In this document: positions 63,924 to 64,000 of the stretch, piece after piece
How the letters are laid out: every line of letters starts with the position of its first letter
Position numbering within the stretch: the first letter of the stretch is position 1
DNA from: Escherichia coli
Lineage (GTDB): Bacteria; Pseudomonadota; Gammaproteobacteria; Enterobacterales; Enterobacteriaceae
NCBI RefSeq assembly: GCF_003334815.1
Contig: NZ_QOWO01000025.1
Direction: 5' to 3' (one strand)
Length of the DNA: 64,000 nt
Notes under the pieces: generated by a model
What the model was told of the DNA's origin: nothing
Seen by the model: the letters and a program-made list of their open reading frames with translations, nothing else
The model's database searches: none
Position numbers and translations under genes: made by a program

Positions 63924-64000
63924 CTGATGAATCCCCTAATGATTTTGGTAAAAATCATTAAGTTAAGGTGGATACACATCTTGTCATATGATCAAATGGT
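63924..64000 (+). mobile_element. IS10 (Tn10) outside end, partial - element continues beyond window
   Basis: ctgatgaatcccctaatgattttggtaaaaatcattaagttaaggtggatacacatcttgtcatatgatcaaatggt matches the IS10/Tn10 terminal inverted repeat and adjacent pIN/IHF region as I recall it; preceding 9 bp tgcttaatc partly fit the IS10 target consensus NGCTNAGCN. Confidence 0.75.

Follow-up and report, generated by a model that had tools for sequence, protein, structure and literature searches.

The window analysed here is a stretch of 64,000 nt of Escherichia coli DNA, and the flank upstream of its right-hand edge is collinear with the K-12 gene order rlpA-dacA-ybeD-lipB-ybeF-lipA-tatE. The sequence-only reading of this stretch had placed ybeF immediately downstream of lipB, in agreement with the order lipB-ybeF-lipA found in collinear genomes. 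lipB is intact, and ybeF is represented by a 5' fragment whose translation is identical to YbeF residues 1-54. The fragment is followed by the last 77 bases of the window, which read CTGATGAATCCCCTAATGATTTTGGTAAAAATCATTAAGTTAAGGTGGATACACATCTTGTCATATGATCAAATGGT and constitute one end of the insertion sequence IS10. The visible part corresponds to bp 1-77 of the 1,329-bp element, the remainder lying beyond window position 64000. The features of the locus are listed in Table 1.

Table 1. Features at the ybeF-IS10 junction, in window coordinates.
Feature	Position	Strand	Basis
lipB, lipoyl(octanoyl) transferase, intact; upstream neighbour of ybeF	62861..63502	+	213-aa ORF; lipB annotation in collinear K-12 and other genomes
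5' fragment of ybeF with GTG start; codons 1-54 and first base of codon 55	63761..63923	+	collinear with K-12 ybeF (L003:3462-3624)
66-aa fusion ORF: YbeF residues 1-54, 12 IS10-encoded residues (PDESPNDFGKNH), stop	63761..63961	+	
Predicted target site TGCTTAATC, left copy of the expected 9-bp duplication	63915..63923	.	nine bases abutting IS10 bp 1
IS10-Right outside end, bp 1-77, cut by the window edge	63924..64000	+	77/77 identity
23-bp terminal inverted repeat (bp 1-23)	63924..63946	+	exact match
What we take to be the IHF-site region of the outside end, IS10 bp 30-42 (AATCATTAAGTTA)	63953..63965	+	sequence read directly; assignment presumed
Antisense RNA-OUT, 3' 32 nt	63969..64000	-	Rfam RF00240, model positions 39-70; 35.2 bits, E = 4e-05
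Dam site GATC, IS10 bp 67-70	63990..63993	.	read directly

The exact point of entry was determined by comparison with an uninterrupted gene. Intact K-12 ybeF reads ...gcgaaagtgcttaatc/tgaccccctcggcaatc, whereas the window reads ...gcgaaagtgcttaatc/CTGATGAATCCCC, the oblique stroke marking the join; in K-12 the surrounding bases are ...gtgcttaatc/tgaccccctcg. Codon 55 of ybeF is therefore interrupted after its first base, nt 163, to which IS10 bp 1 is joined. This fits the earlier statement that the reading frame enters the element after codon 54, and the 66-aa ORF noted at the same time is indeed present and is an artefact of the join. The nine letters proposed as the target (tgcttaatc) were also given correctly, and the left copy alone is visible in the window. 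For IS10, a target consensus NGCTNAGCN, a relaxed form NPuCNNNGPyN and a 9-bp duplication have been cited (PMC4574204). TGCTTAATC agrees with the consensus at four of the six specified positions, including one perfect GCT half-site, and with the relaxed form at three of four positions (counted by hand). Judged by these matches, the target appears compatible with IS10 but not diagnostic of it.

The identity of the 77-nt segment was established by comparison with Tn10 of plasmid R100, in which L004:11001-11077 is identical to it at all positions (77/77). The segment is likewise identical (77/77) to the IS10 inserted into ybeF of strain ET5, and BLAST against enterobacterial plasmids matched it in 3,028 records (E = 3e-32); identical copies number in the thousands across plasmids and E. 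coli genomes. The 23-bp terminal inverted repeat of IS10 is the transposase binding site; this repeat, CTGATGAATCCCCTAATGATTTT, is matched exactly (23/23) at the boundary of the element, occurs as a sole copy in the window and was matched in none of 100 shuffles of the window. The segment is thus an IS10 end, and chance is excluded as its source. An IS10 outside end beginning with its terminal repeat at 63924 is what had been recognised from the letters, and the check then proposed, alignment to IS10 and Tn10 references, has sustained the match and in addition allowed the end to be typed. In R100, the matching segment sits 30 nt upstream of a gene annotated as 'IS4-like element ISVsa5 family transposase', IS10 being a member of the IS4 family that carries the name ISVsa5 in NCBI annotation. 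This gene is followed by tetD, tetC, tet(B) and tetR, which puts the IS10 copy on the tetD side of Tn10; since the R100 end adjoins tetD/tetC, it is the IS10-Right outside end. When both arms of the R100 Tn10 were aligned, their outside ends differed at four positions within the 77 nt, namely bp 24, 25, 27 and 47 (GGTA in IS10-Right versus TATC in IS10-Left at bp 24-27, and G versus A at bp 47). The window carries the IS10-Right base at each of the four, and a search of the R100 sequence that allowed up to three mismatches matched the IS10-Right end alone. The end type is IS10-Right.

Several regulatory landmarks of the outside end are contained in the visible segment. The Dam site overlaps the -10 region of the transposase promoter pIN (PMC5006887). 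The antisense RNA-OUT is partially present, and its score in the window falls below the 41-bit gathering score solely because the window edge cuts off the 5' end of the RNA; the complete RNA-OUT in the ybeF::IS10 locus of ET5 scores 98.8 bits over 70/70 positions of the same model. The position of the match is in line with the RNA-OUT terminus reported at nt 47 of IS10 (PMC5006887). From these landmarks it follows that the transposase gene would be on the plus strand, in the same direction as ybeF and lipA. The IS10 DDE transposase gene encodes about 402 aa and starts near bp 108, and in related loci the transposase gene comes after the outside end at about this distance. The pOUT promoter would fire in the opposite direction, back toward the ybeF stub and lipB.

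YbeF, the product of a non-essential gene, is a LysR-type regulator, and the position of the join within it bears directly on its function. In intact K-12 YbeF, Pfam assigns HTH_1 to residues 31-89 and LysR_substrate to residues 116-316. The join falls within HTH_1, as had been predicted from the window. By our reading, the break lies just before TPSAISQSIQKL, which would form the recognition helix, so that ybeF would be split between helix 2 and the recognition helix of the winged HTH. The native start would yield only a 54-residue stub with a 12-residue IS-encoded tail. LysR-type regulators typically combine HTH_1 and a C-terminal substrate-binding domain in a single polypeptide. The window allele, which holds residues 1-54 and then IS10, lacks this architecture and is accordingly a disrupted remnant of a member of this family rather than a functional member. 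As the DNA-reading helix and the entire effector-binding domain would be cut off from the promoter and the start codon, the allele is almost certainly null, and the inactivation of the regulator that had been claimed earlier is supported to this degree by the domain architecture. The annotation of ybeF in this strain should read pseudogene, the 66-aa 'protein' being an artefact of the join, and the strain would be a natural ybeF null that could be used as a natural mutant for studies of YbeF. In one systems study, a YbeF deletion mutant showed 67 differentially expressed genes, with lrhA down and the FlhDC regulon up (PMC9068703). In the same study ybeF clustered with citrate lyase genes, and regulation of the lipoate genes was not among the reported effects (PMC9068703). 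YbeF is a poorly characterised regulator that has tentatively been linked to flagellar and citrate genes.

The background in which this allele resides is close to K-12. Over 64 kb, 15 SNPs separate the window from MG1655, the IS5 located between lnt and gltI in MG1655 is missing (window position about 37285-37292), and the tRNA array after asnB (window 29426-29908) consists of five genes (Met-Leu-Gln-Met-Gln) versus seven in MG1655 (Met-Leu-Gln-Gln-Met-Gln-Gln), leaving the window 221 nt shorter there. Each tandem tRNA-Gln pair may truly have lost one copy, or the tandem repeats may have been collapsed in a short-read assembly. In its last 24 kb, the window is related about equally closely to many phylogroup-A-like isolates of animal, human and water origin. 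An origin from a K-12 laboratory strain, which would have favoured a relic of Tn10, is ruled out by the 15 SNPs, the missing IS5 and the different tRNA array. Judged by this comparison, the host is a natural phylogroup-A-like E. coli that is near K-12 but not derived from it. As a side observation, ET12567 (NZ_CP045457.1, 686022-711282; K-12 dam/dcm) contains an extra insertion of ~1,337 bp within the region that matches window 40001-63923. Its size fits IS10 plus a 9-bp duplication, and it is absent from the window.

The junction was then sought in public sequences. It is present in none of 5,426 complete E. coli genomes. By exact look-up, the 66-aa fusion protein was found to be deposited once, as CAM9308573.1 on contig CBDBYT010000027.1 of the draft assembly GCA_965212685.1. 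This contig has the identical junction and encodes the identical 66-aa product, and over 10,225 nt not one base differs from the window. Its sequence breaks off after 62 nt of IS10, compared with 77 nt in the window, and on the upstream side it reaches about 3.5 kb further than the window. GCA_965212685.1 most likely represents the same isolate as the window, or the same clone. Since this sole public contig with the junction stops at IS10 bp 62, no extension past bp 77 was gained from it. Exact DNA searches for the left junction in metagenome contigs and species-representative genomes, and for the right junction with either end type in metagenome contigs, gave no match. For either IS10 end type, an in-frame stop was computed 12-21 nt inside the element, and there is therefore no right-junction-specific protein that could serve for exact look-up. 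The products of downstream ybeF fragments (266 aa from GTG codon 52; 228 aa from Met90) were tried as look-up handles and rejected, as they are also called in hundreds of genomes without an insertion between lipB and ybeF.

The second assembly also bears on the question whether the join is real. A chimeric assembly, in which the end of a ybeF contig was joined to an IS10 read while ybeF is intact in the genome, would be in keeping with a window that resembles a short-read draft, with a repeat stub of exactly 77 nt, a common assembler k-mer length, and with a tRNA array two tRNA-Gln copies short of K-12. Unlike a random chimera, however, the join coincides exactly with IS10 bp 1 and adjoins a target with a GCT half-site; the same junction recurs in a deposited assembly with a different cut-off; and real IS insertions are expected to make short-read contigs end within the repeat. 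We therefore regard an artefact as extremely unlikely. The 77-nt repeat stub and the tRNA-Gln shortfall suggest that the window, too, derives from a short-read draft, and the contig break at this position is explained by an assembly that stops at a repeat. The allele ybeF nt 163::IS10 is already contained in a public draft, and it represents a known element and an ordinary event. It could serve as a clone-specific marker. The sequence-only reading had regarded IS10 as characteristic of lineages that once carried Tn10 and hence as a marker of strain history, and this holds for the site, which is distinctive in being found on one draft contig and in none of the complete genomes, but not for IS10 per se. 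IS10 outside ends occur in 1,876 of the 5,426 complete E. coli genomes (35%), so that the element is a weak lineage marker.

Together, these observations would be explained if, in a natural E. coli of phylogroup-A-like background, an IS10 copy of the Right type had transposed by a cut-and-paste mechanism into chromosomal ybeF, entering at the target TGCTTAATC after ybeF nt 163 with its outside end facing lipB. We consider it very probable that this explanation as a whole, transposition of IS10 into chromosomal ybeF at TGCTTAATC, most probably as a solitary copy, is correct. The window copy shares with the IS10-Right of R100 the terminal repeat, the diagnostic bases, the Dam site and the 3' part of RNA-OUT, and its target has one GCT half-site, as would be expected for IS10; the R100 copy is on a plasmid, whereas the window copy is in a chromosomal gene. 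The window ends at IS10 bp 77, in keeping with the earlier judgement that it cannot by itself separate IS10 alone from a full Tn10. A solitary 1,329-bp IS10 is probable, on rough frequency counts from other genomes rather than from this locus, because three other ybeF::IS10 alleles are solitary and because genomes with IS10 ends are far more numerous than genomes with Tn10 junctions. On the chromosomes of the complete E. coli genomes, IS10 ends were located at 4,202 places; the median per genome is 2 and the maximum 45. The inside end of a solitary IS10 reads ...GGGGATCTCTCAG. With a solitary element, the insert would measure 1,329 bp and end in ...GAAATTATGAGGGGATCTCTCAG, after which the second copy of TGCTTAATC and then TGACCCCCTCGG would come; the far junction would be an IS10 end joined to TGCTTAATCTGACCCC.

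A complete composite Tn10 of about 9.1 kb, conferring tetracycline resistance and entered from its IS10-Right side, would place tetD, tetC, tetA(B) and tetR after the first IS10 and a second, inverted IS10 at the far end. The outside end that delimits Tn10 on its IS10-Right side in R100 matches the 77 nt without a difference, a draft contig breaking inside IS10 fits Tn10 as well as it fits a solitary IS10, and the Tn10-specific tetD-IS10R junction was found in 565 of the 5,426 complete E. coli genomes, in some of them on the chromosome. However, genomes with IS10 ends outnumber those with the Tn10 junction more than threefold, each of the other three ybeF::IS10 alleles that we examined consists of a solitary IS10, and tet genes have no direct evidence in their favour. 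A full Tn10 at this site is thus unlikely, although it deserves to be kept in mind. We also considered an IS10 fragment, which might be a remnant of deletion or rearrangement, an engineered mini-Tn10 with short IS10 ends or another composite bounded by IS10. The visible IS10 sequence stops at bp 77, and in about 30% of the matching plasmid records the match spans under 80% of the 77 nt, as it does in some genome records. Against this, the match is perfect over all 77 nt and runs past the BclI site at bp 66-71, and the join is at bp 1, as transposition predicts. In mini-Tn10 derivatives, the 70-bp ends would stop at the BclI site, although a literature search for such 70-bp ends found nothing. 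The host is a natural isolate and not a K-12 laboratory strain, which speaks against an engineered element. We rate a fragment of any of these kinds as very unlikely, and a solitary IS10 remains the favoured state of the element.

The insertion may also concern the neighbouring lipoate genes. lipB is located upstream of the insertion and cannot be subject to polarity; at most it might, speculatively, be affected by antisense transcription driven from pOUT. lipA lies 208 bp downstream of ybeF, and a ybeD-lipB-ybeF-lipA operon has been predicted in E. coli (PMC4398509). In a simple scan, the ybeF-lipA spacer contained no consensus promoter, and a single candidate was located in the 3' portion of ybeF, downstream of the join (L003:4222-4249), a result too weak to decide on polarity. 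A polar effect on lipA through lost read-through from ybeD-lipB-ybeF is therefore possible. Other strains with ybeF::IS10 or ybeF::IS1 keep an intact lipA, which indicates that such insertions are tolerated.

ybeF has been hit by insertion sequences in other strains as well. In the complete genomes of ET5 (NZ_CP101014.1), 13C1079T (NZ_CP019267.1) and HCM-22C-2 (NZ_AP038228.1), ybeF is interrupted by IS10 in the same orientation as in the window. In each of them the element is a solitary 1,329-bp IS10 flanked by 9-bp duplications, downstream of which come the remaining part of ybeF and an intact lipA. These three alleles represent two sites in the effector-binding domain, ybeF nt 523 (duplication TGTTTTGCA, in 13C1079T and HCM-22C-2) and nt 641 (duplication CGCTGCGCA, in ET5), whereas in the window the HTH is hit, at nt 163. 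IS10-Left-type sequence is present in two of these three alleles, in contrast to the IS10-Right type of the window. A cluster at 90% identity around the fusion protein comprises 303 N- and C-terminal YbeF fragments, some of which carry IS-derived sequence at the broken end, either an IS1 end (...KLVMLPTY) or a reversed IS10-Left outside end (IYLNLMILIKIIRGFIS...). The fragments P0002 and P0014 are C-terminal, start with (C)IYLNLMILIKIIRGFIS, that is, a reversed outside end of IS10-Left type, and are fused at about residue 220 of YbeF; as read from these sequences, they would show a further insertion of IS10 or Tn10 in ybeF, with the outside end facing lipA. Several E. coli genomes carry IS1 within the 5' part of ybeF (L008, L010, L013 and L018, about 9260-9965; H4-H6; H104). 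The fragment P0004 ends in ...SIQKL+VMLPTY, read as an IS1 end after residue 68, and P0003 is a 70-aa fragment at the ends of 13 contigs. The HTH region of ybeF may be a recurrent or a lineage-inherited site of IS1.

ybeF has independently been hit by IS10 at three sites or more, by oppositely oriented IS10 copies in draft contigs and by IS1 near codons 68-70, which raises the question of selection. Potentially, the loss of YbeF is selected, or IS10 retunes the lipoate genes through pOUT antisense transcription into lipB or through blocked read-through into lipA. In view of these multiple hits and of the effect of a ybeF deletion on lrhA and FlhDC (PMC9068703), a selected loss is conceivable. 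It is disfavoured because a crude count of large insertions in ybeF in complete genomes is no higher than that in the control gene rihA, and we consider both readings improbable. Likewise, ybeF was rejected as a hot spot for insertion sequences: in complete genomes the excess of places over genomes, a crude proxy for genes split by a large insertion, was 14 for ybeF and 14 for rihA. The search for insertions in ybeF joined same-orientation insertions only, and an orientation bias is therefore not inferable from it.

Some further observations on ybeF concern its conservation and annotation. By megablast, at least 80% of K-12 ybeF was matched in 4,368 of 5,424 complete genomes, compared with 5,419 of 5,422 for the control rihA, and in O127:H6 34% of ybeF was covered at 94.8% identity. 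The low full-coverage count probably reflects a strongly divergent or partly replaced allele in some lineages rather than IS insertions. In public gene calls, ybeF has internal starts at GTG codon 52 (266 aa, 459 collection blocks) and at Met90 (228 aa, 581 blocks), and many of the genomes with internal starts (L009, L011, L012, L014, L015 and others) have no IS between lipB and ybeF. An internal start would remove part of the HTH, and the start calls are inconsistent across public assemblies.

Finally, a minor duplication was observed elsewhere in the window. The 145 nt at 5360-5504, at the 3' end of kdpE, recur at 9695-9839 after potE with 90% identity, and K-12 annotation places an N-terminally truncated winged-HTH pseudogene after potE. 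By this similarity, 9695-9839 would be an old partial duplicate of kdpE that is also present in K-12.
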